Counted from the stretch's first letter, positions 8,748-51,621 are shown. The stretch is 59,104 nt of DNA from Candidatus Woesearchaeota archaeon (GCA_021734105.1 JAIPJP010000003.1:1-59104); one strand, 5' to 3'. The notes: generated by a model not told the origin, from the sequence alone. Made by a program: numbers and translations.

Positions 8748-8846
8748 GGGCCCGTAGCCTAGCCTGGATAGGGCACCAGCCTTCTACTTGCCGTTTGGCA
8801 TGAAGCAAGCTGGGGATCGCGAGTTCAAATCTCGCCGGGCTCACCA
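8748..8846 (+). tRNA. tRNA-Arg (anticodon TCT) with a 21-nt intron at 37/38, CCA encoded
   Basis: Structure reads GGGCCCG-TA-GCCT..GGGC-A-CCAGC-CTTCTA[cttgccgtttggcatgaagca]A-GCTGG-GGATC-GCGAG-TTCAAAT-CTCGC-CGGGCTC-ACCA. Loop CTTC can pair with intron GAAG, and TGCC/GGCA form an inner helix, as expected for a BHB substrate. Confidence 0.85.
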
Positions 8847-36262: not shown

Positions 36263-36458
36263 AAGAATCGAAGTAAGGAAGTATATAAATTTATGGAAGA
36301 AAGAAGAACAATAAAAACTGAAGAATCTTACTCTTCTTCAGAGAATTTTTAATACTTTGAACACAATGAAAAAAAATAATAAAGAGAAGAGATTTACTCT
36401 TCTTCTGAGAATTTTTTGATTTCGCAAGAAAATCAAAGATTTTCTGCGCACCAAAAAA

Positions 36459-36617
36459 TTATTCCTCTTCGGAAAATTTTTTGATTGCTTCGTAGTTTTC
36501 TACGATTAATTTTGCTTTGTTTTTACCAAAACTAAAAGGCCATTTGCCTTCTGCATCTTTATCGCTCACAAGCTTAATCATCTTATTTCCTTTAAATTCA
36601 CCAAATTCTACTGGCAT
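36459..36617 (-). CDS. Small protein (52 aa), possibly PC4/YdbC-like ssDNA-binding fold
   Basis: The start at MPVEFGEF follows an AGGTGA Shine-Dalgarno site. FSFGKNKAKLIVENYEAIKKF resembles PC4-like small proteins, but the match is weak. Confidence 0.4.
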   Translation of the reverse strand: MPVEFGEFKGNKMIKLVSDKDAEGKWPFSFGKNKAKLIVENYEAIKKFSEEE

Positions 36618-36722
36618 AATATAATCACCTAACAATTTGGGCAAAAAAGACATTTATAAGCTTTATGGCGTTGCAGCCGCTACAACGAGACCTTATTAAA
36701 AAGATTCCTCAAAGATACCCTT

Positions 36723-37253
36723 ATGGCCCAATTAACTGCGAAGCAAGAACGAGGTTATCGCTTTGAAATGCTTGTTTTGGAAGCCTTTAAAGGAATTTCT
36801 GGCATTTACAACCTCATGCATAACGTGGAATACCATAAGGAAAGATGGGTCTATCGCCAAGCAGATATTTCCTACCAAATAGCAACGCCTCAAGGACTAG
36901 AACTCGTGCTTGTTGAAGCAAAAAGCTCACAAGGAGGACCTATTACAAGAAAGCTTCGAGCGGAAGTTACTAAGAACGGACAACTCAATCCCCACATCAC
37001 TACACTTGATCAAGAAATACTTGAGCGACAGGCCTTCGTTGGTGCACAACAAAGTATTGCCATCACAAACACATATTTTAACAAAGAATTTGTGCGAGCA
37101 GCACTGGACCAAGGAATCTACGTTATTGACCACAAATGGCTCGAGAGTATATTTGCAAGTCAAGGAAAAAGTTATGGCAGTGTTGAGCGCGCAATAAATA
37201 GTATTCACTTAAACGGTCAAGTCAGCCAGAAAAATATTATTTACATTCCTTAA
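36723..37253 (+). CDS. PD-(D/E)xK nuclease-like (Mrr/NERD-like) protein
   Basis: YRQADISYQ...LELVLVEAKSS fits a D...ExK catalytic arrangement. Confidence 0.45.
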   Translation: MAQLTAKQERGYRFEMLVLEAFKGISGIYNLMHNVEYHKERWVYRQADISYQIATPQGLELVLVEAKSSQGGPITRKLRAEVTKNGQLNPHITTLDQEILERQAFVGAQQSIAITNTYFNKEFVRAALDQGIYVIDHKWLESIFASQGKSYGSVERAINSIHLNGQVSQKNIIYIP

Positions 37254-37354
37254 ACGTATTGCGAAGATTTATTCTCACTCTGCTCGAAATGCCAATCGTT
37301 AAACAAGAATATTTTGCACAACTTACGTTGCACAAAATTAGTTTAACTTATTTC

Positions 37355-37366
37355 TACTTCAAGGCA
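37355..37366 (+). promoter_or_regulatory. Copy 3 of TACTTCAAGGCA, about 44 nt upstream of a TATA-like TTCTTATATC
   Basis: Identical 12-mer. TATTGCGAAG lies 98 nt upstream (37257-37266). Confidence 0.45.
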
Positions 37367-37468
37367 ATACTACTTGCAAAGGTGTTGTTTTCTTTACTAC
37401 TGCGCTTTCTTATATCTCTCATTTTGTTTACTACATCTACAACACCCTAACATGTGGAGGTAACAACT

Positions 37469-38161
37469 ATGGGAAAAGTAAAAAATTTACTTGTGGCAGG
37501 GGGCATCACATTAGGCGCATTAGGACTCACCTATTTAGGAGAGAAGACGCAACCAGTAACCAAACTCACAGAAGCAATCAAATTTCATAATGTAGCAGCC
37601 TCGCCAAGCACGCCAGAAAATTATAAATTATGGCACGTAGAAGTACTTAAAGACCAAAACAACGATGCTGTAGTCAGTTTTACTGATGATAGTACGAGCT
37701 ATTTCTTACATAAAGAATTAGGACCAGTAAGTAAAGAAGAAGCACTACAGTATGAAGCAATTAAAAACAAACCAGCAGCAGAAGGAACACCGCAAGACTT
37801 TCTTAACGGCGACATCGCATACAAGATTAACGAGCAGGGAAGAGTTGAAATGTATTTTGGCAACAAAGCAACCAGACAATACTGGCAAGTAAACTCGAAC
37901 TGGACAGCAGGCGATTTTGGTGAACGAATTGATGATATCTTTGAACGACTTGCTCGAGGACCAAAGTGGACTGCAGCAACAGAACAAAAAATCAAAGAAA
38001 AAGCAATAGAAGGTTGGGAGAAAGCAGACTCTCTTTATCAACAGAAAAAAGACCAGATTACGTCAGGAGATTCACTTACAAAACAGAATTTCTGGGATAA
38101 AATCAAAGAAACAACAATAGAATCGTATGAAAACGTTAAAGGAGTGTTTGAAAAGAAGTAG
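37469..38161 (+). CDS. N-terminally membrane-anchored protein (operon gene 1)
   Basis: GGAGGT Shine-Dalgarno site 8 nt upstream. A TM segment LLVAGGITLGALGLTYL is followed by a soluble domain with no recognised family. Confidence 0.6.
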   Translation: MGKVKNLLVAGGITLGALGLTYLGEKTQPVTKLTEAIKFHNVAASPSTPENYKLWHVEVLKDQNNDAVVSFTDDSTSYFLHKELGPVSKEEALQYEAIKNKPAAEGTPQDFLNGDIAYKINEQGRVEMYFGNKATRQYWQVNSNWTAGDFGERIDDIFERLARGPKWTAATEQKIKEKAIEGWEKADSLYQQKKDQITSGDSLTKQNFWDKIKETTIESYENVKGVFEKK

Positions 38162-38236
38162 TAAGCGCTACTGCGCTTTTTGATATATACATAAAACAAT
38201 ACACTACATAAGAACATTTGCACGGAGGCAAACAAA

Positions 38237-38542
38237 ATGGGATTAATTGGAAAAGTTTTAACGGGAACTGCACTTGTTGCAGGAGGTATCGTTGTCGGTA
38301 CCGGTTTAGCAAAGGATAACGACTATAAAATCACGCGAAGTGGTGATGACGTCTTCTTAAAAGATAGAGACACTAAAAAAGAATATGTACTCACCAGAAC
38401 AGAAGGAGAAACATACATGGGCAATGCAACACATAACTTTGAAGGAGCATTCGTTCTTGGAAGTCAAGAAATTACAAAAGGAACAGTGAGTGCTGATTCA
38501 TTAAAGAAATCATTCATGGACGTTTACCAAGGAGGTAAGTAA
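38237..38542 (+). CDS. Small N-terminally membrane-anchored protein (operon gene 2)
   Basis: TM segment VLTGTALVAGGIVVGTGL. The stop is 1 nt before the next ATG. Confidence 0.55.
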   Translation: MGLIGKVLTGTALVAGGIVVGTGLAKDNDYKITRSGDDVFLKDRDTKKEYVLTRTEGETYMGNATHNFEGAFVLGSQEITKGTVSADSLKKSFMDVYQGGK

Positions 38543-38543
38543 G

Positions 38544-39626
38544 ATGAGTATTTTAGAAGATAGTCAAGAAACTCAAAAACAAAAATCTGGCAAGCAAGAA
38601 ACAGTCAGCACAAAAGAAGCAGATCGAATCTTAGAAGAGCAAAAAAAATTCGATGAGAAAATGAGAGATATCGAAAAGCAGGCAAGAACTCTACAAGGAA
38701 ATCCAAAAGATCAACAATTATTCTACGATAAGGCTGTTTACACCGCTTTAACCGGCAAAGAAGTTTCAGGAATTCAAGAGAAAATAAATGATGCAATATA
38801 CATGAACACAGGTAGAAGCATGTACAAAGAACGGTCTGTTAAACATCTTAAAACAGTCGATAAAAACATCGATAAAGCTGAACGAGAACTTGAGCAAGTT
38901 GTTGGTAAATTTGAAGGCGAAATTGAATTTCAGCCAACAAGAACTATTGATGATTTTGTTTCCATGAAAGAAAGTACTCCTCAAGAATCAAAAGGTACTC
39001 GATATCAAGCTCTGGAAGCAAAAAGAGAAGCAAAAATATATGAGCGTAAAATTCAAGATATGGAAGTTGCACTATTACAATATAGTGCTAAAGAAGAAGA
39101 AATAGATAATAAAATTGAAGAACTAAGAACGTCTTTAACTACACCTGGAAATCTCGCACTTATCAGCGAACTTGAAGATGTGAAAGATGAAGTTGTTCAA
39201 AAACAAGAAGAAGTTATTGGCAAAATTGAAGACTATTCTGTTCTAAAAGAAGCAAAAGATATGGAATATGAAATTGCAGATACTAAGTTTTTGAATGAAA
39301 AAAATAATCTTTCTCAAGCACAAAGAAAACTGATGGAAGAAAAATCTAAACGAAGATTCTTAGACCTTTATATTAAAACAGATGGCATTATTGAATACGG
39401 AAACGTTATTCAGAGTATTGGAAAAGTTACTAATGGCCTAAAAGGCTATACAACTGTTTTACAGCACGAACAAGCAAAGAACAAAAGAGCATTTCCAACT
39501 TCAAATGGTATTAATGGAAAAAGTTTCAGCGGATCTGTAAAAGGCATGCACGATAAGGCAAAACTAGAAGATAGCAAATATCGAGTGGAACTTATCAAAA
39601 AAACCAAAGATAAGTATAGAAATTAA
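38544..39626 (+). CDS. Coiled-coil protein (operon gene 3)
   Basis: 360 aa, E/K/Q-rich with heptad-like periodicity and no TM segment. Confidence 0.6.
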   Translation: MSILEDSQETQKQKSGKQETVSTKEADRILEEQKKFDEKMRDIEKQARTLQGNPKDQQLFYDKAVYTALTGKEVSGIQEKINDAIYMNTGRSMYKERSVKHLKTVDKNIDKAERELEQVVGKFEGEIEFQPTRTIDDFVSMKESTPQESKGTRYQALEAKREAKIYERKIQDMEVALLQYSAKEEEIDNKIEELRTSLTTPGNLALISELEDVKDEVVQKQEEVIGKIEDYSVLKEAKDMEYEIADTKFLNEKNNLSQAQRKLMEEKSKRRFLDLYIKTDGIIEYGNVIQSIGKVTNGLKGYTTVLQHEQAKNKRAFPTSNGINGKSFSGSVKGMHDKAKLEDSKYRVELIKKTKDKYRN

Positions 39627-39659
39627 ACAATTTTTTATTTTTTTAATAGGTGAATAAAT

Positions 39660-41255
39660 ATGACTCTGGAACTACTATTGGAGAGAGATCTTCTTGTTAA
39701 CGATATGAATATTGCTAAAATAACTTATCGCGATCAGCTTCATATCCTCAAAGAAGCTGCAAGAAGTAAATTTAGTTTTGATATTGAAAAAGGAAATGAA
39801 GCTAAAACTCTTGTAGATGATGCAGGTTTACTATTCGCAGGAACATATACTTCTCTTGAAAGTAAAGTTGCCAAAAGAAAACCATTTACTAGTGCTCCCG
39901 ATGAATTTAAACGAAGTTACTTAACATTTGTTGCGGCTGAAGGCGTATTACAATACATAGCAAAAGATGAAGATATTGAAATCAGTAAAAGTTTTAAAAG
40001 ACCTGAAGTATCATTTAACCAAGGAAATTATAACCTCATCAGCGATGTTATGGAAGGTATGACTCGAGCCTTCGAAGAAAGCAGTCTGGGTAATTCAGCA
40101 ATCATTGCGGCAAATTATTTAGCAAGTGTTCGCGATGAAGCATTAAAAAAAGTTCTTCGAAAACAAGCATTAAAAAAAGATTTGCAAAACTATGCTGTTA
40201 TCAGCGATTTCTTTGCCGTTGAAGGTATCGGAAACAGCACTACAACAATTAATCCAACGACAGACGAAAAACCATTAGCCATCAAAGAAAAAAGCAAAAT
40301 AGTGTACGATCCAATTAGTTTAACAAAAAACATTAATCTAAGCGAACCAGTTCTTTTTGAACAAATTATCGGCAATAAGGATGCAATTGAACATGTCTTT
40401 AAGAATGTCCGAAAACTATTAACTTACGACTCGAAGCTTGGTTTTAATCCGGAGCAAAAAATACGAGGACTTAATCAACTCATCATGCTTACAGGTATGC
40501 CTGGAAGCGGCAAGTCAATGATAGGACAAGCAGCAGTTCATTATGCTCTTGGCATCGCAAAAAAATATAATAAAGAAGTTGAAATTGTAAAATTTGATTT
40601 TGATACTGCATGGAAATCAGGAGAAACACAAATTCTTGAGCATCAACTTAATTATATCACCCAACCAGATAAAATACGAATAGTATTCCTTGATGAGGCA
40701 GATAAATATTTCCCTTCCCGAAATGAAACAATTGATCAAAACATCATTAAAACAATAAATACGTTTTTACAAATCGATAACCCTGCAATATATCCAAATG
40801 CAGGAAATTACCTCATCTTAACAACAACTAACAGAGGAAAAAATATCGACCCTGCAATAATGGATAGATATGCGAGAATAGGAGGCGTTCATTTTTGTAA
40901 TGGACCTGAAACAGCAAAAGAACGAATAAAACTTATTAAACAGTATTTGAAAAAGCACGAAGTTGAACAATATATCAACATCACTGACTGGAACGAAATA
41001 GGAAGAAGAAGTGATAAAGTTAGTGCAAGAGCGCTTTCAGGAGTTGCTGAACTTGTTAAAGGTGAAGTATACAAAGATAATGAATTCATTGAAGACGATG
41101 TGTACTTTAATTCTGATGGAAATCAAGTAATAGATATCATCAAAAAAGACACACAAAAAGTAGGCCAAGAACAAATGTATTCATTAATACATCGAGCCAA
41201 AGAATTAGACGAAAAATTAAATAAACTCAATCAACAATTTAGAGGTAGTGCATAA
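39660..41255 (+). CDS. Classical AAA-family ATPase with unknown N-terminal domain of about 260 aa (operon gene 4)
   Basis: Walker A LTGMPGSGKSM, Walker B IVFLDEADK, sensor-1 LILTTTNRG, and the Arg-finger region IDPAIMDRYAR. Confidence 0.8.
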   Translation: MTLELLLERDLLVNDMNIAKITYRDQLHILKEAARSKFSFDIEKGNEAKTLVDDAGLLFAGTYTSLESKVAKRKPFTSAPDEFKRSYLTFVAAEGVLQYIAKDEDIEISKSFKRPEVSFNQGNYNLISDVMEGMTRAFEESSLGNSAIIAANYLASVRDEALKKVLRKQALKKDLQNYAVISDFFAVEGIGNSTTTINPTTDEKPLAIKEKSKIVYDPISLTKNINLSEPVLFEQIIGNKDAIEHVFKNVRKLLTYDSKLGFNPEQKIRGLNQLIMLTGMPGSGKSMIGQAAVHYALGIAKKYNKEVEIVKFDFDTAWKSGETQILEHQLNYITQPDKIRIVFLDEADKYFPSRNETIDQNIIKTINTFLQIDNPAIYPNAGNYLILTTTNRGKNIDPAIMDRYARIGGVHFCNGPETAKERIKLIKQYLKKHEVEQYINITDWNEIGRRSDKVSARALSGVAELVKGEVYKDNEFIEDDVYFNSDGNQVIDIIKKDTQKVGQEQMYSLIHRAKELDEKLNKLNQQFRGSA

Positions 41256-42664
41256 TGCTCCCTCGGGAAATGCTTCGCAGTAAAGAAGCAAAAGAAATAT
41301 GGGATTTCTTGCATGGAAAAGAGAAGAAAGAAGAAAAATCAAAACAAAATTATAAGGTCATAAGAACAACAAGTTCTGTACCAGCAGTAGACGATGCAAT
41401 CAAAACAAGATTCAAACAGACACCAAAAAATAGTATCCCGACCTCAACAGTTAGTATCGATAGTCTTATTACTAAAGGAGAGCATATTCCTGAAGCATCA
41501 ATAACAACAACTCCAGAACATAAAGAAGAATCCTTACGGTTTTCAGATTTAAAAACTCCAGAACTACACGATATTGTCAAATATGCACAAAACAAAGGTA
41601 TTGTTGGTGAAGAAGCATTAGTAGTTACTGCATACCTTGCACTATCTCATAATATTCATTTGGGAGTTGAAGGGTATAGTGGTTCAGGAAAAACATTTCT
41701 TACAGATAAAATTATCGACCTTATTCCTGAAGAAGAAATTTATCGAGCAGAACTTGCTTCAAAGCAAGCAATCTTTCACGATGAAGGCAGAATTAATGAA
41801 GCAAAAATACTCTATTTTCCAGAATTACAAAAAGCATTACAAGACAAAACAGCACCAGCTCTAGAGCTTATTAAAAATATTACCGAAGGTCGAGATGCAA
41901 AACGACTCGTTACTTCAAAAAATTTAGAAGGCAGTGATGAATTTATTATTACAAAAGATAAAATTATTATCTACACGCTTGCAAAAGAAAATTCGTTTAA
42001 GAAAGATACAGAACTTTCCAGAAGAATTATGCGACTAGTTACTGATTCATCACCAGAACATTTTGAAGCAATTCATAATTATAAAGCGAATGCTCGATTA
42101 CAACTCAAAACTAATGGTACAAGCAAAGACTTAGCACAACGTCTGAGCAATCATCTTCACACTCTTCGTAACTTTTCCGTGCAGGTGATTGACCCATTCG
42201 CAGAATACCTCCAAGCATTTATTCCAAAAACACAGAAATCGGTCGGATATATCGACCATTACTACCACTTGGTTGACGCCTGCACGCGTTTCCATTACCA
42301 AGAAAGAGAACATTTCAATATTAATGGGCAAGATTATTTGCTCGCGCAAGTCCAAGATCATCAGTACATTCATGCACTCTACTATAACGAGTTTATGAAA
42401 ACACTTGATGACTTAGCACAAGAAGATGAAGCAAAACAAGAATTTACAGCTCCTGATTGGAAAGACTGTTTTGAGCAAGGAAGAGAAAATTTGTATAACA
42501 ATGAAGCCTTACACACAATAATAGAAAGAAATCCTACTCTTTTAAAGAACTGGGAGTTACGACAACTCAACCAAAGTAGCATATACACAAAGAATTATAA
42601 AACTGGTGAACTTTTCACACTTACAAGCAACGTCGAGTTAAATAAAAATGATACGATTTCCTGA
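41255..42664 (+). CDS. P-loop NTPase with SF3 (D5/P4/VirE-like) helicase-core resemblance (operon gene 5)
   Basis: Walker A GYSGSGKTF and Walker-B-like ILYFPE, followed by LIKNITEGRDAKR, KIIIYTLAKEN and LSRRIMRL in the order seen in D5/P4-type cores. The start codon overlaps the gene 4 stop. Confidence 0.55.
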   Translation: MLPREMLRSKEAKEIWDFLHGKEKKEEKSKQNYKVIRTTSSVPAVDDAIKTRFKQTPKNSIPTSTVSIDSLITKGEHIPEASITTTPEHKEESLRFSDLKTPELHDIVKYAQNKGIVGEEALVVTAYLALSHNIHLGVEGYSGSGKTFLTDKIIDLIPEEEIYRAELASKQAIFHDEGRINEAKILYFPELQKALQDKTAPALELIKNITEGRDAKRLVTSKNLEGSDEFIITKDKIIIYTLAKENSFKKDTELSRRIMRLVTDSSPEHFEAIHNYKANARLQLKTNGTSKDLAQRLSNHLHTLRNFSVQVIDPFAEYLQAFIPKTQKSVGYIDHYYHLVDACTRFHYQEREHFNINGQDYLLAQVQDHQYIHALYYNEFMKTLDDLAQEDEAKQEFTAPDWKDCFEQGRENLYNNEALHTIIERNPTLLKNWELRQLNQSSIYTKNYKTGELFTLTSNVELNKNDTIS

Positions 42665-43862
42665 AATTTGGAAAAGATACGAGCAAGGCGAGTTAAAAAG
42701 ACTTGAGCCCGAGAAACCCTCTTCTACTAAAATAATGGGTTACAAAGACTTAGATGCTAGTTCACAAGCCATTAACCAAATCGCTTCATTTCAAAGTAAA
42801 CCTCTTCTTAAAAAAATAAATAGCCTACCCATCACTAAACCATCCATTCCAGCATTAGAGAAAATCCTTGAACCTATAGAAGCTGCAGAAAAAAATATTG
42901 CTGATAAAGTTGATTTATTCGAGCTTCACGGACATTTTATCAGAGTCATAAAGCTAGGAGATGCATATGATAATTTCATTCTTGGTGCCGAGATAAAAAA
43001 TTATCTGGACTTTGACTTTTTCTATACAAATCTCAAAAATGGAAAAAACGAATCAATTGTTCAAAAAAAACGAGAACAAGTTGATTCTATACACGAAGTG
43101 GTTGTAGGCCTACATCGTCTTGCACAGCGAAGAAAAATTGATGATGAAATCCCTTACATGAATAAACAGACCATTACAGAATACAGCACCACCCGTAATG
43201 AAATTAACAAGATTAAAGGCAATATAGCGCGCATCAAAGAAGAATATGAATACACTGATTTACTTTCAAAGAAAGGTCAAAAAGATATCAAAGAACTCCA
43301 ACATGAAATTAAACAATGGTGGAAAAAAGATCTCATTACTAACGCAAAGGCCATTGGCTATGTTGAAGGTGTTGCAGAGCTTAAAGACTTACACGAACTA
43401 CTTAAAGATGCACGAAAACACCCAAAAGAATATCAAGTAGCAAAACGAGCACAACAACGAATTAAACAACAGACGCAACCAGCAGAAACAATTACACCTT
43501 ATGAAGTAAAACAAGAAGAAACAAAGCAACCAGTTTCCGCTCTAGAGCCTGAAGAAAAAACACCTCAATATTCACTGTCCATGCACCTGTTCTCCATTGG
43601 CTATCCACAAAACTTCCAATACTTTCCACTTAGAAGCTCACTTGTTGAGCAAGACGCTTGGCCGAAACGATTCGAACGATTTAACAAATATCTTACTAAT
43701 TTAACAGCGACAAAAGCTGTGCTTCAGATGAGTACAGAAGATAAAACATATTTAAAGTCAATTGCAGAAGGCATGTATCTTGCAGCAGAGAAGCCAGAAC
43801 CAGACTTCCCCGTAAAAACAGCTAAAGAGACATACAAGACGCTTCAAACACTTAGTTCTTAG
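42648..43862 (+). CDS. Hypothetical protein (operon gene 6)
   Basis: 404 aa, overlapping gene 5 by 17 nt. No family recognised. Confidence 0.55.
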   Translation: MIRFPEIWKRYEQGELKRLEPEKPSSTKIMGYKDLDASSQAINQIASFQSKPLLKKINSLPITKPSIPALEKILEPIEAAEKNIADKVDLFELHGHFIRVIKLGDAYDNFILGAEIKNYLDFDFFYTNLKNGKNESIVQKKREQVDSIHEVVVGLHRLAQRRKIDDEIPYMNKQTITEYSTTRNEINKIKGNIARIKEEYEYTDLLSKKGQKDIKELQHEIKQWWKKDLITNAKAIGYVEGVAELKDLHELLKDARKHPKEYQVAKRAQQRIKQQTQPAETITPYEVKQEETKQPVSALEPEEKTPQYSLSMHLFSIGYPQNFQYFPLRSSLVEQDAWPKRFERFNKYLTNLTATKAVLQMSTEDKTYLKSIAEGMYLAAEKPEPDFPVKTAKETYKTLQTLSS

Positions 43863-43886: not shown

Positions 43887-44609
43887 TTACTTTTTTGCAG
43901 CTTCCCAGAGAAGTGCGAAATATTTTTTGTAGCTCTGCGCGACTTGTTTATTTTTTACAACGATGCAGACTAGAGGTTTTTCCCAAAGCGTAATCATTAT
44001 CTCATCACCACAGACCCAAGTTGAAACTTGCGAATCAAAAGACTCAGGCAGAAATCTTGCTTGGGTTAATTTCATTTTATTTAAGAATTTAATTCGATCA
44101 GTCGCATCATGATTGTAAATATGGAGCATCTTTACACCTTGCTGTATTCTATCTTTGTGAAAATGAGGAATTTTTGTTCTTACCAGTTCAGGAACTGTAT
44201 TAGGAATACCATAGACTCGAATATCATCGTTGTACTTTAGAAAGCCACGCATGGCATTAAACAAACCTTGGAGACCTTCAGCCACGTAAGACTCGCTCGT
44301 ATCTTCTACTAATCGTCTTGAAAGTTCTAATTGCGGAAGAATGGCAGTAAGTTGATTTTCTTTTGCCTTTAGAATATTCATCAAAGCGCTTGGCTCAACA
44401 GCTTCATAGTAAGAAACTTTTTCTTTTTGCATATACGTTGCAAGGCCACGAGCAACAAGTTTTTTAAGAGCATCATAAATGTTTGCACGGTGAAGTTTAG
44501 TTGTATCTGCTACTTTTGTAACCGTTGAAACACCGTCGTGAAGGAGTGCTAAGTAGATTTTTGCTTCGCTGCGACTCAGACCAATATCGACCAAAATATC
44601 TTCGTTCAT
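43887..44609 (-). CDS. TrmB-family transcriptional regulator
   Basis: The N-terminal LGLSRSEAKIYLALLHDGVSTVTKVADTTKLHRANIYDALKKLVARGL is the TrmB wHTH. A C-terminal effector-like domain follows. Confidence 0.8.
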   Translation of the reverse strand: MNEDILVDIGLSRSEAKIYLALLHDGVSTVTKVADTTKLHRANIYDALKKLVARGLATYMQKEKVSYYEAVEPSALMNILKAKENQLTAILPQLELSRRLVEDTSESYVAEGLQGLFNAMRGFLKYNDDIRVYGIPNTVPELVRTKIPHFHKDRIQQGVKMLHIYNHDATDRIKFLNKMKLTQARFLPESFDSQVSTWVCGDEIMITLWEKPLVCIVVKNKQVAQSYKKYFALLWEAAKK

Positions 44610-44640
44610 TTATAAATAACCCTGTTTAAACTATATAATT

Positions 44641-44665
44641 CAGCAAAGATATATAAATATTGCTG
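44641..44665. promoter_or_regulatory. Inverted repeat CAGCAA-N13-TTGCTG bracketing a TATA-like ATATATAAATA in the TrmB/LDH-like divergent intergenic region
   Basis: The sequence is cagcaaagatatataaatattgctg. It lies about 40 nt upstream of the ATG at 44704. Confidence 0.4.
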
Positions 44666-44703
44666 CCACCCTCTACTGTAAAGTAGTACACGGGGAAGAA
44701 CGT

Positions 44704-47034
44704 ATGACAGCTGTATTTGATGCAAACCAACTAATGGCCAGACAACAACGACAACAAGTTGAAGCAGCACTACGCGGTTGGGATCATCTCAATCCAAAAA
44801 AATATAATATTCTTTTTATTGGTGATGGTGGCGTTACTCAAAACGCCATAAATCTTATTGCAAATAATGCCAATAAATTCATATTTGATATCGACCATAT
44901 TTATATCGTCGGAAGAGTTCAAGAAGGAAGTGTACAGAAACGAGAAAAAGCAATTAGAGATGGCAAGATACATACAAGGATAGATAACAATGAAATTAAG
45001 ATCAAACCAAGAAGTTTTGAATATTTAGAAGAACTACTTCAAGGCAATAAAACTGATTTAGTCTTTTTTACACTAGATAAAAATCCATCTAATGAGTATG
45101 ATAGAAGCAAGTTATCCGCAGAAAATATTAGTTTAGTAGAAAAACTCAAAGGTAAAGTCAAAGCAGATTTTACAGGAATCATCAATTTTGTTTCCAATCT
45201 GCCAGAAGTCTTAGCAGCTTATGCAACACAAATTCTAGATATTGACCCAAGACAAATAACTGCAAATGTTCCACTTGATCTTCTTCGAGCAGAATCAATA
45301 ATCTATAATGAAATAAGAGAAGAAATTTCTGGATTTACAGGATTTGAAATAGTTATGGCAGGATTTCATGATCAAATAATACCCTTTTTAGAACACTCCA
45401 AAATTTGGACTGGCTACACCATAAACAAAAACACAACAGAAAGAAATTTTAAAACATTTAACGAATACATTGCAAGAGATCCTCGATTTGAAGGAGCTGT
45501 TAGAGAACAAGTAAGTAAATATGCAAAAGAAGACTTTGAATTATTAGAAGCGTACTTAAAAGCAAAAGGGTTTGAATGGCAACAAGGTGCAACCATTGAA
45601 ACAACAGGTGCAGGAATTTTTAGATTTACTCAAACAGTAATTAATGGAGAAAAAACAATTACAGGCATCCCTGAACTAGTAGGAGATAAATACTATTTCA
45701 AAAACTTACCAGTTACATTTGAAAATGGTTTTCCCCAACGAGATGAAGAAGTAATCAGAAAGCTCTCCGAAGAAGACAAACGACTTATAGATGCAACAAT
45801 TGTAGATTCCAAGCATACAACACCAAATCAAAGAAAAAATTCAATAATGCCAAAAACACTTCAAACAATCATTGAAGAAACGACTAAAGAAGTTAATAGA
45901 AAACGAAGCAAGCATGATAAAATAATAATAGCATGTCAAACCCCGCGAGCAACCGATGAAGAATTAGCAGAGAAGTTTGGTAAGCGAAAAAAGCTCAACA
46001 TAAAAGAAGTTGATGAAGCAACCATAAAACATCTTCAAAATAAAAACATGAAAAAAGTTCTTGAGGAAGGTTTATACACCACATTTGCTCTGAAAAAATC
46101 AAACAATAAAACAGGATTTACTTATTACGAATTCGCAGGTTCAATTGAACCCTTCAATTCCAAGCCATATCAAGTGAGAAACAAGAATCTTTCTTACGAA
46201 GAAGAAAAAGAATTCCTCAGAAAATCACCAATTACAAAAATTAACCATTACAAAGAACATATTTATGCAACTATCGCAACTCAAGGAAAAAACAATCTTT
46301 TTTGCACACTAGGACTGGTTGAATTTGAAAAAAACAATGGTTTAGAAGGACAAATTATCTGGCAATGTGAAAAGCCAATGGACTCAATTATAGAAGAATT
46401 TATCATTCAAAAAAATCAAACTGTTGCAATAGTCTCAACACCCGATGGCCAGTTTCTTGAACGAATAGATCAAAAAGGAAAAATAAGAGAAACCACGAGT
46501 TTGCCTGAACAAATATATGGATTTCAAAAATATAAAGAAGGATTATTGCTTATTGGAGAGGAGAATGTTTATCAATACACGAATAAATGGAAAAAAATTG
46601 CTCCAAATAACAAAGGACGGGAGTATGAACTGCTTAGTGATAGAAATATTCTTTTAACGATGTCTGAAAACAGGGCCAACATTATTGATTTGGAAAAAGG
46701 TTTGATAACTTCTTATCCAACTACAAATTATCTTGGAACTATTGCATCTGAGAAAAAATATTTGCAATTAGCAACATCAAACGAAGAAGGCATAGTTATC
46801 CAAGAATTTAGAAGCAAAGAGGAAGCAGTCTCTAAAGAAAGTAAGGAACGATTTATCAGAGAAAGCCAGTTAGAAGATCCTTGGAAAATATATGCACCAA
46901 GAAAAAATGTTCTTATAACATTTCATCAAGATAATATCTTTGCAACAAGCCATAACGATTTAGGACAATTAAAAACAGTGAATTTAGTTTCAGGAGCACA
47001 GTTCTTAGATTTTGGAGGGTTTTTTGAAAAATGA
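44704..47034 (+). CDS. LDH/MDH-like 2-hydroxyacid dehydrogenase-fold domain fused to a beta-rich (propeller-like?) C-terminal domain of about 400 aa
   Basis: The N-terminal half follows the LDH order: ILFIGDGGVTQNA, DLVFFTLDKNPSNEYDRSKL, FVSNLPEVL, PLDLLRAE, MAGFHDQIIPF. The C-terminal half consists of repeated short beta-strand-like segments. Confidence 0.55.
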   Translation: MTAVFDANQLMARQQRQQVEAALRGWDHLNPKKYNILFIGDGGVTQNAINLIANNANKFIFDIDHIYIVGRVQEGSVQKREKAIRDGKIHTRIDNNEIKIKPRSFEYLEELLQGNKTDLVFFTLDKNPSNEYDRSKLSAENISLVEKLKGKVKADFTGIINFVSNLPEVLAAYATQILDIDPRQITANVPLDLLRAESIIYNEIREEISGFTGFEIVMAGFHDQIIPFLEHSKIWTGYTINKNTTERNFKTFNEYIARDPRFEGAVREQVSKYAKEDFELLEAYLKAKGFEWQQGATIETTGAGIFRFTQTVINGEKTITGIPELVGDKYYFKNLPVTFENGFPQRDEEVIRKLSEEDKRLIDATIVDSKHTTPNQRKNSIMPKTLQTIIEETTKEVNRKRSKHDKIIIACQTPRATDEELAEKFGKRKKLNIKEVDEATIKHLQNKNMKKVLEEGLYTTFALKKSNNKTGFTYYEFAGSIEPFNSKPYQVRNKNLSYEEEKEFLRKSPITKINHYKEHIYATIATQGKNNLFCTLGLVEFEKNNGLEGQIIWQCEKPMDSIIEEFIIQKNQTVAIVSTPDGQFLERIDQKGKIRETTSLPEQIYGFQKYKEGLLLIGEENVYQYTNKWKKIAPNNKGREYELLSDRNILLTMSENRANIIDLEKGLITSYPTTNYLGTIASEKKYLQLATSNEEGIVIQEFRSKEEAVSKESKERFIRESQLEDPWKIYAPRKNVLITFHQDNIFATSHNDLGQLKTVNLVSGAQFLDFGGFFEK

Positions 47035-47852
47035 ATTATTTAGAGTTTATTACAAAAACAGAATTTCAAAACAAACGATCTGAACAACAAGATAGAACTT
47101 ATTATGACCTAGAACAAGGAATAATTTTAGTTGCAGACGGACTTGGTGGAGAAAAACATCTCCGAGGAGATTATGCAAGCCAATTAGCTGTTGAAGAGAT
47201 GAGAAAACATATCGAATCAAATAATTATATGATTAAAGAGAAAATTATTTCAGAAGGCGAAATTACCTATTGGTTCAAAGTAAGTTTAGAAAAAACAAAT
47301 GAACTTATCGCGGAGCTTTCCCATAAAACTGAACAGTTCAAAAATACAGGAACTACACTTGAGGCACTGCATATCTACAAGAACCGATTATATTATGCAC
47401 ACATAGGCGATAGTGCGACATTTATCATCAGACCAAATGAAAAAAATTATGTAAACTGGTCTATGCATGGTTCAATTCAAAAACTAGCACAAGAACATAA
47501 TAGTAATAAAGAAAACACAACAGGATTTGTTACAAGTTACTTAGGCAGAGACAGCAAACTATCCGAAAACAAATTCGAATTTAACATATATAAACTTCAA
47601 CCTGGAGATATCATATTTTCTTGTACTGATGGAGTTACTAACCCATTAATAACAGATGATATTCTTGACATTTTTACTAATAATAGAATAGTTGACGTTA
47701 GTAAAAAGATTATCGAACGAGTTAATAATCCTGTAGGAAGACTTATTGAACTTCAAAAAAAAGGAAAAAAACATACACTCCAACAATACTTAGGAGATAA
47801 TGCTTCTTTCGTAATATATCAAGTAGGTAATACATATGACAAAAGAAAATAA
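47031..47852 (+). CDS. PP2C-family Ser/Thr phosphatase
   Basis: Motifs seen are VADGLGGE, AHIGDSATF, SCTDGVTN and LGDNASFVIY. It has an ATGA overlap with the upstream gene. Confidence 0.85.
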   Translation: MNYLEFITKTEFQNKRSEQQDRTYYDLEQGIILVADGLGGEKHLRGDYASQLAVEEMRKHIESNNYMIKEKIISEGEITYWFKVSLEKTNELIAELSHKTEQFKNTGTTLEALHIYKNRLYYAHIGDSATFIIRPNEKNYVNWSMHGSIQKLAQEHNSNKENTTGFVTSYLGRDSKLSENKFEFNIYKLQPGDIIFSCTDGVTNPLITDDILDIFTNNRIVDVSKKIIERVNNPVGRLIELQKKGKKHTLQQYLGDNASFVIYQVGNTYDKRK

Positions 47853-49293
47853 TAGCTCGACAAACAAAAAAAAATATATAGATAAAGTACTTCTTAAAAA
47901 AGAAAAAACACTAATAGATGCTCTTGAGAATTCAAAATTATATGAACTAGAGTACGACAGACAAACAGGCGTAGAAAGAGACACAAAAAAAACAAGAATA
48001 ACATTTAATGCAAGAGATACAAAAGGAAATTCTGTGTTCATAAAAATTCCTTTTCCTACTGAGCCGGAAACAAACAAACAGCAAATAACAAGAGTTGTTC
48101 AGCTTAGAAAGGCTCTAACCGAAGTTAATCCTCTAGCAAATGAAATTTTGTTTAGAATTGTTCGCGATGAGCCTCTTTTCTTAAATGGTCTTTATGGAAT
48201 TGTAACAGAACGAGGTCATCATAATCTACAAGATTACTTTCAACATACAAGCAATCAGCAAGAACGTGCAAATACAACATTTCATGCAATTCAACAATCA
48301 ACAAGAGGAATGCAATTACTCCATCAAAATAAATCAATAGTGTGTGATTTTAAGCCAACTAATTTGGTTTTTTTCTCAGATGACGAGTGGATGATAGTCG
48401 ATCCAGAGAGTTTTAAACCATTAGGAAGTAAACGATTTGATCCAAAACTTCGTGTTGAAGGTAGCCACTCATCAAGTGGAAGAACAAAAGACTATGCAGA
48501 CTGGCAATTAGAAGACAAACTTCATGACCCTCTATCCATACTTACAGACTGGTATGCGGTAGGAACAACACTTTTCGAAGCATACTACGAAACAACACCT
48601 AATGTGATTTTCCAAGAAAAAGAAATTGCCGATAAAAATAAACAAGTAGAATGCCTTCTTGGAATGATTAACCAAATTCCTAATGAAGTTCATCGTCATT
48701 TCATGCAAAGAACAATGGGATACGTTCTTGAAGGAGAACTCTTGCCTGAAAGAAAAACATACACTGATTTCAGATTCAGAACAACTGAAGAGACAAGAGG
48801 GTTCCTTGAAAAAGGAGAAGACTCACTTCTTGAACAAAAACTAAGTCATAAAGATTATCAAGCATTTCTAAAAAGCGTTCAAGATTTCAAGGACTTAAAA
48901 GAAAGAGTGACTCAAAAATCAAGCGGGCTTGAAGGATCGCTAACGATAGAAAATGCTGAAGCTGTTCGATCAACATACAAGAATGTTTATTCTTGGTATG
49001 CAAACGAGCATGTTAGTCCTCTACAACAAAGTAAAGAACATTTAAAAGAAGTTGAAGATATCAAAGAGCAAATTGTCTTTAGCGAGTTTGAAAAGATGAG
49101 AGCTTACCTACAAAAAAATAAAGATTTAGAAAATAAGAAAATTGCTAAGCCAATGTGGGAAATCTTTTCAAAAGCAATGATACTTGGCTTAAATAAAGAA
49201 GAAAAAATGTATTCTCTTCAGGACATTGAAAAGTTAGATGATAAATATATTTTAGAAACAAGACAACTCATCAATAAAATTAAACAATTATAG
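47836..49293 (+). CDS. Atypical Hanks-type (eukaryotic-like) protein kinase with helical C-terminal extension
   Basis: The VAIK-like Lys is in SVFIKIP. The catalytic loop is VCDFKPTNL, followed by IVDPES in the DFG position and a DWYAVGTTLFE subdomain IX-like segment. It overlaps the PP2C gene by 17 nt. Confidence 0.65.
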   Translation: MTKENNSSTNKKKYIDKVLLKKEKTLIDALENSKLYELEYDRQTGVERDTKKTRITFNARDTKGNSVFIKIPFPTEPETNKQQITRVVQLRKALTEVNPLANEILFRIVRDEPLFLNGLYGIVTERGHHNLQDYFQHTSNQQERANTTFHAIQQSTRGMQLLHQNKSIVCDFKPTNLVFFSDDEWMIVDPESFKPLGSKRFDPKLRVEGSHSSSGRTKDYADWQLEDKLHDPLSILTDWYAVGTTLFEAYYETTPNVIFQEKEIADKNKQVECLLGMINQIPNEVHRHFMQRTMGYVLEGELLPERKTYTDFRFRTTEETRGFLEKGEDSLLEQKLSHKDYQAFLKSVQDFKDLKERVTQKSSGLEGSLTIENAEAVRSTYKNVYSWYANEHVSPLQQSKEHLKEVEDIKEQIVFSEFEKMRAYLQKNKDLENKKIAKPMWEIFSKAMILGLNKEEKMYSLQDIEKLDDKYILETRQLINKIKQL

Positions 49294-49302
49294 TAAAGAA
49301 AA

Positions 49303-51201
49303 ATGCCGCAAGACCTAGGAGAATTAGTAAGGCAAGAAGCCAATAGACGACTTAAAATACACGAGCAATGGGAGCGACGGCGCGACAGGCAAAAAGCTTG
49401 GGAGAAAAACAGACAAAAATTCTTTGGCAGCGCTAAGTTCTTAGGAACAACAGCACTCCTCTTTGGTGGTTTAATGATAGGCAATAAGTTAGTTAATACT
49501 GTTCCTCCTCGAGAATTTAAACATAAAATAAAAAAATACGAAAATAAAATCATTGAGTTAGAAAAAGATAGCGCCTCTTATGTGCTAAGCACTCAAAAAC
49601 TTCAAGAAGAGAATGCTACTTTTGAAGAAACTAATAAAGAACTTCAAAATCAAATAATTGTTGAAAAAAATAAAATTCGCACACATAATTTTTCAGGAAA
49701 AGGAATACCGCACACAACTGTTCAAATTTATAAAAATGGAAAAGCTAAAACCGGAATAATAAATAATAGTGGAAAAATTAATATTACTTGGGAAGATAAA
49801 AATAAAACATTTCTCGCAGACAGCATCATCGCATTTCTTGATGGATACAAACGAGCAAAAGCAACAAATGTCTCAATAGGAGAAAAAGTTAGTTATAATT
49901 TACAACTAAAAAAAATTCCCGAATCTCGAAAAGAAATTCCAATAACGCCTCAAGCCAAATACCCCTTAGTTCTTAATGGAAAAAAAACAAAAGGTGCAAA
50001 TATTACGGCTTGGCATAATAAAAAGGAATTAAAACCAAAAGACTATGGAACTACCTATACCTTTTCATGGACTGGCAATTCTAAATCTATAGTTATAGAT
50101 AGCATAATAGGAGCATTAGAAGGATATAAACGAATGAAAATAATCGACTTGCAAGTAAATGAACAGACTACTCAGAACTTCATTTTAGAAAAAATTTCTT
50201 CAGAAAAAGAAAATAAAATAATTCAAACAAAACCCCGACTAGAACAAGAAATAAACATGCCAATAGAAAGCGGCGATAAAAAAAGAACACGGAAATTAAC
50301 AGCCGCTCCCTTAAAAGAAAGAGGAAATAAGTTAATTCTTGAATCAGGCGTGTATGAACAAATTCAGTCAATTAATATCCCTTCAGGAAAAACACTTATC
50401 ATTGAGAAAGGAGTCATTATTCAAAAGTCGCCAGGATTTGGAATTAACGCCACTGGAGGATCACTTCATGTTAAAGGCACACAAGAAAACCCTGTAGGTA
50501 TTATTGGCGGAGAAGGAATCGAACTTATTAATTCAGAAAAAAATAAAGTTAGCTACTTAGTTCTTTCAGATATTATAGATTACGATACCGACGATGGAGG
50601 AGCATTTACATTACGAAACACAGAAATTTACTTTGATAACCTTACTGTTAATAATGCGCAAACAGCGGGTAGTGGTGGAAGTATTGCAGCATATCGATCT
50701 GACGTTGAACTTACTACCAGTAAATTAGTTAGAGGAAAGGCAGGGTTTTATGGAGGAAACCTTTACATCTACGATTCGCCATACATCATAACAAATTCTA
50801 CAATCACCAAAGGTTCGGCAAAAAAAGGAGGAAATATTTACGTTGAAAGTACTAAAATAAGAGATATAAAAGAAGGTAAAAAAGCATATGCAGAAAAACC
50901 ATATATAGTCATTACTACTAGTGAAGTTACTCAAGGTGTCGCTACAACAAAAGGAGGAGGTATTTGTTTGATAGATATTGGGACAAAAATAACTAATACT
51001 GAAATAAGTCATTGTCAAGCGCAATACGGTGCAGGAGTTTATGGAGAAAAGGGCGCTTATGATTTTAGAACTAGTAACATCCATAACAATATCGCAACAG
51101 TTTCTGGAGGGGGAGGCTATTTTGTTAAAATTGGCCCTTCGTTAGACTCCTTTAGACAACCATTCTCCAATAACAAACCAAATAATTTTATAGAAAAATG
51201 A
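49303..51201 (+). CDS. Membrane-anchored surface protein 1: cytoplasmic tail, TM, coiled coil, two PEGA-like domains, Pmp-type right-handed beta-helix
   Basis: TM segment LGTTALLFGGLMIG. Two repeats end in LDGYKR and LEGYKR. GG[AGNS][FILY] repeats are spaced about 25-30 aa apart (GGAF, GGSI, GGNLY, GGNIY, GGGIC, GAGVY, GGGGYF). Confidence 0.7.
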   Translation: MPQDLGELVRQEANRRLKIHEQWERRRDRQKAWEKNRQKFFGSAKFLGTTALLFGGLMIGNKLVNTVPPREFKHKIKKYENKIIELEKDSASYVLSTQKLQEENATFEETNKELQNQIIVEKNKIRTHNFSGKGIPHTTVQIYKNGKAKTGIINNSGKINITWEDKNKTFLADSIIAFLDGYKRAKATNVSIGEKVSYNLQLKKIPESRKEIPITPQAKYPLVLNGKKTKGANITAWHNKKELKPKDYGTTYTFSWTGNSKSIVIDSIIGALEGYKRMKIIDLQVNEQTTQNFILEKISSEKENKIIQTKPRLEQEINMPIESGDKKRTRKLTAAPLKERGNKLILESGVYEQIQSINIPSGKTLIIEKGVIIQKSPGFGINATGGSLHVKGTQENPVGIIGGEGIELINSEKNKVSYLVLSDIIDYDTDDGGAFTLRNTEIYFDNLTVNNAQTAGSGGSIAAYRSDVELTTSKLVRGKAGFYGGNLYIYDSPYIITNSTITKGSAKKGGNIYVESTKIRDIKEGKKAYAEKPYIVITTSEVTQGVATTKGGGICLIDIGTKITNTEISHCQAQYGAGVYGEKGAYDFRTSNIHNNIATVSGGGGYFVKIGPSLDSFRQPFSNNKPNNFIEK

Positions 51202-51296
51202 AACTCACACATATAATCAAAACAAGAGTAGTTATCACTTTAGCAAACATGTTAACAACACGATGCGCATCAAACAAAAAAATAAAAAATGATTAA
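51198..51296 (+). pseudogene. Remnant of a lipoprotein signal-peptide exon (32 codons)
   Basis: It encodes MKLTHIIKTRVVITLANMLTTRCASNKKIKND. It shares a perfect 25-nt block (51262-51286) with the lipobox region of the gene at 51625 (51683-51707). It has an ATGA overlap with the preceding gene. Confidence 0.5.
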
Positions 51297-51621
51297 AATG
51301 ATACAAGCAAACTATAACCCTAATAACAATAAATTATCACCTTGGGAAAAAGAAGAACGAAATAAAATTAACAAATTTGTTGGAAAGTATCTTCTTTGGG
51401 GAGGAGTAGTAATTGCAAGCTATATGGGTGTAAAAGCAGTTAGTACTAGATTGCCAACCGAAGAAAATAAATTTGAATTTGCAAAATATGATAAACGAAT
51501 TAATCAACTTGAAACGGAAGTAAACAAATTAGAAAAAACATACAGTTTAGAACAGAATAAAAATACTAACCTTCGTAGACAAAAAAATAATTTAGAAAAA
51601 GAATTACGAAAAGTACAATAA
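51289..51621 (+). CDS. Small TM + coiled-coil protein (partner 1)
   Basis: TM segment YLLWGGVVIASYMGV, then heptad-like sequence ending NNLEKELRKVQ. It is a paralog of 54625..54900. Confidence 0.6.
   Translation: MIKMIQANYNPNNNKLSPWEKEERNKINKFVGKYLLWGGVVIASYMGVKAVSTRLPTEENKFEFAKYDKRINQLETEVNKLEKTYSLEQNKNTNLRRQKNNLEKELRKVQ

Follow-up and report, generated by a model that had tools for sequence, protein, structure and literature searches.

DPANN archaea have tiny genomes, and a conserved gene block of ~7 kb that is linked to a further ~5-10 kb is therefore unlikely to sit idle in them. What, then, is the work of a seven-gene block at positions 36,723 to 43,862 of a 59,104-nt segment from a Candidatus Woesearchaeota archaeon (GCA_021734105.1, JAIPJP010000003.1), in which the gene for a classical AAA ATPase overlaps that for a second ATPase akin to the helicases of plasmids and viruses? 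The segment, the whole of which we call the window, is a stretch of Woesearchaeota-type DPANN chromosome with a GC content of 35% (0.352), and elsewhere it encodes cellular functions including ProRS, ThrRS, UvrABC, IscS/IscU and SOD. The original prediction, made from the DNA sequence, had singled out the block as an ATPase-centred operon and offered two interpretations, a novel membrane-associated defence module or the core of a cryptic integrated element. We found the gene set to be a real conserved unit, and we infer its function tentatively, with less confidence than doubt, as that of a membrane-tethered, ATPase-regulated conflict (immunity-type) module built around an exapted mobile-element helicase. 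The genes, named g0 to g6 in order of position, are as follows.

g0, positions 36723 to 37253, plus strand: small PD-(D/E)xK (Mrr-like) nuclease-fold protein of 176 aa, predicted; accessory member.
g1, positions 37469 to 38161 (alternative GTG start at 37454), plus strand: protein of 230 aa with a Gly-rich, weakly hydrophobic N-terminus.
g2, positions 38237 to 38542, plus strand: protein of 101 aa with a predicted N-terminal transmembrane (TM) anchor; small membrane component.
g3, positions 38544 to 39626, plus strand: charged, helical protein of 360 aa, probable coiled coil.
g4, positions 39660 to 41255, plus strand: classical-clade AAA ATPase of 531 aa.
g5, positions 41255 to 42664, plus strand: AAA+ ring-motor ATPase of 469 aa, of the plasmid/virus Rep-helicase family.
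g6, positions 42648 to 43862, plus strand: helical scaffold protein of 404 aa.

A listing of open reading frames (ORFs) reproduced g0, the six same-strand genes g1 to g6 and the three junctions from which their coupling had been proposed, namely a 1-nt gap between g2 and g3, a single base shared by g4 and g5 (TAATG) and a 17-nt overlap of g5 and g6. Shine-Dalgarno-like GGAGG or AGGTG sequences precede g1, g2 and g4, and TATA-like boxes stand ahead of g0 and g2.

Related loci were retrieved via homologues of g5 and their ORFs were scored with family hidden Markov models, which gave, among the matches listed, 17 distinct chromosomal loci with enough upstream sequence; these are examples rather than a census. 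In 15 of the 17, the gene immediately ahead of g5 is of the g4 AAA type, and the stop and start codons of the two genes overlap in most loci; the pairing noted in the original prediction recurs well outside the window. In 14 loci the AAA gene comes after one for a coiled-coil protein of 325-437 aa; at least 10 loci have a small membrane protein like g2, and in at least 11 a g6-like protein follows g5. A convergent gene for a TrmB-family regulator, often overlapping the 3′ end of g6, comes after g5 or g6 in 11 of the 15 loci that have enough downstream sequence. Minimal forms (L020 and L023) consist of the coiled-coil, AAA, g5 and TrmB genes, with two g2-like genes divergent from TrmB; a Xer-like tyrosine recombinase lies upstream of each, and both loci sit between ribosomal-protein and LonB genes. 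In L009 (6301-9611) and L010 (3423-6640), genes for a MoxR-type ATPase (AAA_5, AAA_lid_2) and a vWA protein stand between the g4 and g5 orthologues. The same gene order is kept across g5 identities of 33-62%. In distant loci the flanks are entirely different, and the association of g4 with g5 is therefore not a matter of inherited synteny alone; co-localization of the set goes far beyond chance. The g5 family is itself large: grouped at 50% identity, it forms 213 clusters at E ≤ 1e-30, a number that rises to 1427 at E ≤ 1e-3. Wherever a g5 homologue has a source name or record title, its origin is a metagenome bin of Candidatus Woesearchaeota or Nanoarchaeota, and some third-party annotation (TPA) records are labelled "uncultured Methanosarcinales".

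The g5 protein had been compared with the superfamily 3 (SF3) helicase cores of the D5/P4/VirE type. Its motifs GYSGSGKTF, YFPELQKA, LIKNITEGRD, IIIYTLAKEN and LSRRIMRL are all present and are the most conserved positions over 22 homologues; by inspection, with no curated model, their order corresponds to A, B, B′, C and arginine finger. None of these homologues departs from the Walker A residues or from E190, R256 and R257, and N246 is nearly invariant. With the P4 alpha and poxvirus D5-type Rep helicases (PF27228, DUF5906), g5 shares a Walker A motif, an acidic Walker B, a K-x-(L/I)-T-E-G-x-D B′-like motif, a T-L-A-x-E-N sensor and an S-R-R arginine finger. Unlike them, it is chromosomal, has no primase or origin-binding domain and is consistently coupled to a classical AAA gene. 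The precomputed Pfam family of g5 is PF27228, "MTBMA_p00010_2nd", a name that presumably points to a Methanothermobacter plasmid protein. Weak DUF5906 matches were obtained for 11 of the 22 homologues (best E 1.5e-5) and weak Mg_chelatase matches for 10, and no curated SF3 family in Pfam matched the window protein at E < 0.1.

Searches with tblastn placed the relatives of g5 beside primases and on mobile elements. HRTV-27 gp63, which is encoded immediately upstream of the PriS-PriL primase, was matched significantly, as were, in their C-terminal half, CHC2/Toprim primases of 990-1034 aa encoded by bacterial plasmids, on which a helix-turn-helix (HTH) gene and a XerC-like recombinase flank the primase gene. 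A third match was a 470-aa protein on a 74-kb viral contig (33% identity, E 2e-31); its gene adjoins one for a Cas4-like nuclease, confirmed by Pfam, and two nearby ORFs, read from their N-terminal sequences only, are candidates for a ribonucleotide reductase and a DNA polymerase. More distant archaeal homologues lie in small elements made up of HTH, Rep and two integrase genes. A layout of HTH gene, primase-helicase (or Rep with PF27228) and tyrosine recombinase recurs on bacterial plasmids and in small archaeal elements (L030, 1453-5450; L031, 1285-5472; L007; L019), and this recurrence points to an under-described Rep-helicase family common to both domains. A primase or origin-binding domain, whether fused or adjacent to g5, was found only in the mobile relatives, and in neither the window nor any chromosomal locus; the chromosomal copies of g5 have lost the Rep N-terminal domain of the mobile versions.

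Structure prediction, which had been suggested as a check, gave a usable AlphaFold2 (AF2) model of g5 with a predicted local distance difference test score (pLDDT) of 78. In the model, residues 1-30 form a conserved N-terminal helix and residues 31-99 a disordered linker; the AAA+ core comes next, followed by helical and beta domains at the C-terminus. Foldseek comparison with PDB placed MCM first (E 3e-8), followed by RavA and BchI, with TM-scores normalised by target length of 0.56 for the PfMCM AAA domain and 0.51 for BchI. Within a viral fold library the first matches were unnamed proteins at E 3e-15, and then came MoxR-like, fusellovirus, DUF3987 and primase-helicase proteins. In our own reading of the alignment, the motif order 'IPELQKA ... 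SRRF' of the g5 family resembles the MCM box and arginine finger, but g5 has no N-terminal OB/zinc domain, its N-terminus consisting only of helices ahead of the disordered stretch. Likewise, g5 is similar in fold to MoxR (RavA) and Mg-chelatase BchI yet has no vWA partner in the window. Assignment of g5 as a true MCM orthologue or as a MoxR was rejected: the likeness is one of fold only, with no significant sequence match to MCM, RavA or BchI in Pfam or PDB and with neither the MCM N-domain nor the vWA partner. Overall, g5 is an AAA+ ring ATPase related to the helicase parts of plasmid and virus primase-helicases. The kinship noticed originally thus stood, whereas strict SF3 membership is not established.

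The gene overlapping g5 on its upstream side, g4, contains all four motifs by which a classical AAA ATPase had been recognized (GMPGSGKSM, FLDEADK, TTTNRG and DPAIMDR), and PF00004 matches residues 275-407 at E 3.8e-12, with 47.2 bits against a gathering cutoff of 21.2. An all-helical N-domain of ~175 aa and a linker of ~50 aa precede a single AAA module with Walker A, Walker B, a sensor-1 TTN and an aromatic pore loop, AWKSGE, that is conserved in the orthologues. The second region of homology (SRH) has one Arg, in DPAIMDR, and the orthologues of L002, L006 and L009 have none (DPAI(L/I)(N/D)VF). The family profile matches p97 D1/D2, VAT, AFG2, Rix7 and Vps4B down to 2e-36 without clear preference. 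Because a classical AAA module and an aromatic pore loop are combined with these profile matches, g4 is probably a substrate-threading unfoldase. It resembles Cdc48/p97/VAT, AFG2 and Vps4 in module and pore loop, but differs from them in its single AAA module, in the loss of the SRH Arg from several orthologues, and in an N-domain and linker without detectable relatives. The N-domain was all-helical in a low-confidence AF2 model (three sequences, pLDDT 42), and profile searches of a 5.8-billion-protein set and of PDB returned no relatives of it. No close relatives of g4 were found in phage and viral collections.

Comparison of the window with its closest relatives, L001 and L008, indicated that the core of the module has a history of its own. 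For the flanks, g0, g1, g2 and TrmB, L008 is closer to the window than L001 is (61-92% vs 48-79%); the genes closer in L008 comprise SOD, YbjQ, g0, g1, g2, TrmB and the downstream operon, and the order reverses from g3 to g6. Similarity of g3 is undetectable in L008, despite flanks that are 71-92% identical, whereas g3 of L001 is 63% identical to that of the window. Identity to the window is 37% in L008 versus 80% in L001 for g4, and 44% versus 54% for g6; for g5, the difference between L008 and L001 is confined to the two ends of the protein. The stretch discordant with the flanks corresponds exactly to the tightly coupled g3-g6 unit. Across nine loci, the similarities of g4 and g5 co-vary (Spearman rho 0.80), as against -0.14 and -0.05 with TrmB, values that are indicative only and in this respect count against our interpretation, the pairs being non-independent and the distances saturated. 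Because the order of L008 and L001 reverses for g3-g6, and because g4 and g5 co-vary without TrmB, these four genes act like an exchangeable cassette set within a locus that is otherwise conserved. Exchange of this kind is expected of genes under conflict-driven diversification.

Around this ATPase pair stand proteins that would tether it, join it or act as its output. Single N-terminal TM anchors had been claimed for the first two products of the operon. The claim held for g2, in which a TM-like segment at residues 1-25 passes the hydropathy threshold and a conserved 'D-Y-K-I' start of the ectodomain is recognizable, but not for g1, which is marginal and did not reach that simple threshold. 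The g1 gene occurs only in L001 and L008, and other loci carry different membrane proteins at its position. For g3, predicted to be a 360-aa coiled coil, the length was confirmed and the family profile matches generic coiled coils only (Smc at 5e-6, keratin and Rad50), although a crude heptad-periodicity test did not discriminate. The g3 protein evolves fast.

The last gene, g6, had been called an orphan and is not one. Its orthologues are 390-740 aa long with conserved N- and C-terminal regions, and in 3 of 11 a transglutaminase-like core with a Cys/His/Asp-type signature is inserted (Transglut_core, E 5.6e-12 and 1.5e-7). The g6 profile found no match among PDB sequences; g6 is a conserved scaffold that bears a transglutaminase-like domain in some lineages. 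At the other end of the block, the D...E.K signature from which a PD-(D/E)xK-type nuclease had been proposed for g0 proved to be conserved, with D48, E65 and K67 invariant in nine orthologues. A weak precomputed match to Mrr_cat exists for two of the orthologues, those of L003 and L005; the window protein had no match in Pfam and none in a profile search against PDB sequences. The g0 gene is present in ~9 related loci and has a TATA-like region of its own upstream.

No named system was recognized in this combination by the original prediction, and our searches agreed. A check against PADLOC-DB v2 gave no system-level match, only generic AAA matches (for g4, IetA at 2.6e-8 and TRIP13 at 2.5e-7) whose required partners are absent, and a known defence system was rejected on this basis. 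No match was obtained to PHROG families of known function or to a secretion system, and the searchable literature on MTBMA_p00010, on Woesearchaeales AAA/ESCRT and on DPANN SF3 neighbourhoods contained no description of the module. The parts are of known domain kinds, and the combination, together with the exaptation of this helicase family, appears to be undescribed.

The McrBC system pairs an AAA+ ring motor with a PD-(D/E)xK nuclease. The module is like McrBC and Mrr type IV restriction in having such a motor and, in the g0 motif, such a nuclease, but here the nuclease g0 is encoded separately, behind a promoter region of its own, and is dispensable; nor is the sequence of g5 McrB-like, and no domain that would read modifications was detected. 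NTP-dependent conflict systems have been listed as containing Mrr-like restriction endonucleases, transglutaminase-like peptidases, coiled-coil domains and MoxR with vWA (Kaur et al. 2020, PMC7159879), and the repertoire found here (Mrr-like nuclease, transglutaminase-like core, MoxR plus vWA) parallels theirs; this parallel speaks for a conflict reading alongside the co-localization, the identities of g4 and g5 and the cassette behaviour. Like the vWA-MoxR systems, the module joins regulatory ATPases with Mrr-like nuclease, transglutaminase-like peptidase and coiled-coil domains, a Ser/Thr kinase and a PP2C phosphatase adjoin it, and the MoxR and vWA pair is inserted in L009 and L010. Unlike them, its core consists of a classical AAA and a Rep-helicase-type AAA+ ATPase, it occupies a conserved site in small DPANN genomes, and Pfam found no vWA protein in the window, the pair being present only as that insertion. 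The vWA-MoxR and related systems are reported preponderantly in multicellular prokaryotes and rarely in archaea (PMC7159879).

As a conflict module, the set might work as follows. The g2 and g3 proteins would place an ATP-driven machine at the membrane, and the exapted helicase ring of g5 would engage DNA, such as foreign DNA that is entering the cell or being replicated. The g4 unfoldase, matched to its own coiled-coil partner g3, would assemble, unload or activate a complex of g5 and g6, and might do so by threading the disordered linker near the N-terminus of g5. As output there would be DNA cleavage by g0, and proteolysis or cross-linking by the transglutaminase-like domain where one is present.

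Downstream of the module lie a regulator and an operon that bear on this interpretation, with the following features.

TrmB-family winged helix-turn-helix (wHTH) regulator, positions 43887 to 44609, minus strand: 240 aa, convergent with g6, with a PF01978 match.
Candidate TrmB operator TACTGTAAAGTA (TACT-N4-AGTA palindrome), positions 44674 to 44685, no strand: between a TATA-like box and the start of g8.
Neighbour operon of g8, PP2C and Ser/Thr kinase, positions 44704 to 49293, plus strand: lactate/malate dehydrogenase (LDH/MDH)-like fusion, phosphatase and kinase.

A TrmB regulator had been named at this position, and its N-terminal wHTH indeed matches PF01978 above the gathering score (E 2.4e-15, 56.6 bits vs a cutoff of 25.6). 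The TACT-N4-AGTA palindrome, which is rare in the window (2 sites, against 0.75 expected), recurs at the same position in L001, L008 and L009 and as variants in L005, L006, L011 and L024; lying in the divergent intergenic region between TrmB and g8 (44610-44703), it is a plausible candidate for a TrmB operator of the g8 operon. The first gene of this operon, g8 (44704-47034, 776 aa), joins an N-terminal L-lactate/malate dehydrogenase-like region of ~340 aa (profile E 6.5e-15), with invariant catalytic residues R134, N141, R195 and H222, to a C-terminal domain of ~430 aa without assignment. A PP2C phosphatase (47031-47852) and then a Ser/Thr kinase (47836-49293) follow, and the operon is conserved beside the module in L001, L005, L006, L008, L009, L011, L013 and L024. 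Beyond it, 49303-51201, 51289-51621 and 52468-54558 encode paralogous membrane proteins, the 110-aa gene being a short version, that have in common a conserved cytoplasmic peptide at the N-terminus (M.PDL.ELV+.EA.RR), a single TM helix and a coiled coil. Their C-terminal regions look beta-helix-like by eye; none has a Pfam match in the window, and Beta_helix matches were obtained in L003 and L006. In L003, L009 and L013, too, multi-copy families of a comparable kind, whose members have an N-terminal motif in common, are found downstream of the module. L002, L003, L020 and L023 lack g8 yet keep TrmB with g5 and g6, and L013 lacks TrmB yet keeps the kinase and g8. The whole region is therefore a linked neighbourhood.

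Two features elsewhere in the window may be recorded here. A gene for an ATPase with AAA_14 and DUF4143 domains (303-1517) has a GC content of 0.258, against 0.352 for the window, and could be foreign or of defence type. At 8748-8846, ARAGORN called a 99-nt tRNA-Pyl (anticodon CTA) that Rfam confirmed as a tRNA; its length makes the assignment doubtful, and it is more probably intron-containing or mis-assigned than a true pyrrolysine tRNA.

The cryptic integrated element raised by the original prediction fared poorly as a recent event. Values of GC, GC at third codon positions (GC3) and codon usage for the seven module genes are indistinguishable from those of the rest of the window, the housekeeping flanks are conserved in close relatives, and no integrase and no flanking or att-like repeats occur within the window, nor any capsid, primase or polymerase gene. 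Native composition and codon use, together with housekeeping flanks, show that the module is not a recent insertion; a recent horizontal island is ruled out by the ordinary GC, GC3 and codon-usage distances. The variable presence of 36.7-43.9 kb that might have been expected among close relatives was not seen, the module being at the same site in L001 and L008. Nothing meaningful in the way of origin-like repeats was found beside the operon. A replication-origin reading was rejected, since the sole tandem repeat (36304-36486), in the YbjQ-proximal intergenic region, consists of three ~66-nt copies of the 3′ end of a small, 64-aa ORF (36459-36653, minus strand).

How, then, does the conflict reading stand? 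A number of observations weigh against it. A fixed position, native GC and codon use, small genomes and a family of 213 clusters suit a cellular function found throughout the lineage no less well than a typical patchy defence island, and PADLOC returned no system for the set. The helicase, DNA-binding and unfoldase activities are predicted, and the defence role is one that we infer. Membrane tethering of the module depends on one predicted TM helix, that of g2. The nuclease gene g0 is missing from several loci, the g6 protein of the window has no transglutaminase-like peptidase core, and the candidate TrmB operator is turned towards the LDH-like/PP2C/kinase operon, not towards that of the ATPases. 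Taken as a whole, the interpretation of the block as a novel membrane-associated module is partly supported: the conserved unit, the lack of a named system, the mobile-element kinship of the helicase and the conserved nuclease-type signature of g0 speak for it, while a recently integrated element and the orphan status of g6 had to be given up and strict SF3 membership is not established.

Among other explanations, a housekeeping DNA transaction would account for the stability of the locus, although we consider it unlikely. A domesticated mobile-element helicase, g5, would be handled by the AAA unfoldase g4 during replication restart, segregation or repair, with the AAA protein loading or unloading the ring, much as Cdc48/p97 removes the CMG helicase in eukaryotes. 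The fixed chromosomal position, native composition and housekeeping flanks all suit such a role, as do the large g5 family with its replicative-helicase ancestry and MCM-like fold, the tight coupling of g4 to g5 in nearly all loci, and the Xer-like tyrosine recombinase that adjoins the minimal variants L020 and L023. It is harder to reconcile with the very rapid divergence of the g3-g6 cassette and its discordance with the flanks, and optional nuclease, MoxR/vWA and transglutaminase parts would be unusual for core replication machinery. Moreover, there is no primase, polymerase or origin-binding partner and there are no origin-like repeats alongside.

Of similarly low probability is a protein chaperone or assembly machine at the envelope or at the contact with a host, in which g4 and g5 would remodel proteins as MoxR/vWA/transglutaminase operons do, maturing or turning over the downstream beta-helix surface proteins under kinase/phosphatase control. 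The fold of g5, which also matches RavA/MoxR and BchI, and the weak Mg_chelatase signal in 10 of 22 homologues are consistent with such a machine, and so are the MoxR and vWA insertion in L009 and L010, the transglutaminase core in g6 orthologues, and the small membrane proteins that belong to the module. So too is its linkage to g8, PP2C, the kinase and the paralogous surface proteins with their shared cytoplasmic N-terminal peptide. However, it is to primase-linked helicases, and not to MoxR, that g5 is significantly related in sequence, the window offers no vWA partner, and L002, L003, L020 and L023 keep the module without g8, kinase or surface-protein genes.

We regard as improbable a remnant of an integrated plasmid or virus, that is, the replication or maintenance module of a selfish element parked at a preferred site. 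The mobile-element ancestry of g5 and the exchange of the cassette between lineages would fit, and the HTH/Rep/tyrosine-recombinase layout is echoed by TrmB and by the recombinase beside L020 and L023. Against this stand the lack of integrase, att-like repeats and capsid, primase or polymerase genes in the window, the native GC and codon usage, and the loss of the Rep N-terminal domain from all chromosomal g5 copies. The preservation of gene order across g5 identities of 33-62% also argues against a remnant, as does the lack of a close g4 relative in viral collections.

Finally, membrane remodelling of the type performed by the endosomal sorting complex required for transport (ESCRT) or Cdv, with a Vps4-like AAA, a filament-forming coiled-coil protein and membrane anchors, is very improbable and was rejected: the g4 profile has Vps4B (78 bits) as one of its best single-domain matches, and a helical g4 N-domain, a helical g3 and upstream membrane proteins would suit it, but none of 12 g3-family members matched Snf7, PspA or CdvA, the g4 profile matches p97, VAT and AFG2 equally, an obligatory helicase-type partner has no place in ESCRT systems, and an ESCRT survey does not mention DPANN (PMC11188069).

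Returning to the conflict module, a broader and more doubtful proposal can be made about its place in these organisms. It may represent a new, DPANN-specific, membrane-anchored machine for handling DNA, in which a hexameric motor derived from viruses or plasmids, g5, is run by a dedicated AAA unfoldase, g4, with a coiled-coil adaptor, g3. Such a machine might serve archaeal immunity, or DNA uptake and processing at the symbiont-host interface, and its g3-g6 core would circulate as an exchangeable cassette among Woesearchaeota. The locus provides a clean example of a replication motor exapted into a cellular system, and in the interaction of g4 with g5, a DNA-dependent ATPase activity, the nuclease and the TrmB operator the module offers testable candidates for how uncultured symbionts handle foreign DNA or their hosts. 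If it is a defence system, it would bring to the present catalogues an AAA-driven type from archaea that they do not contain.

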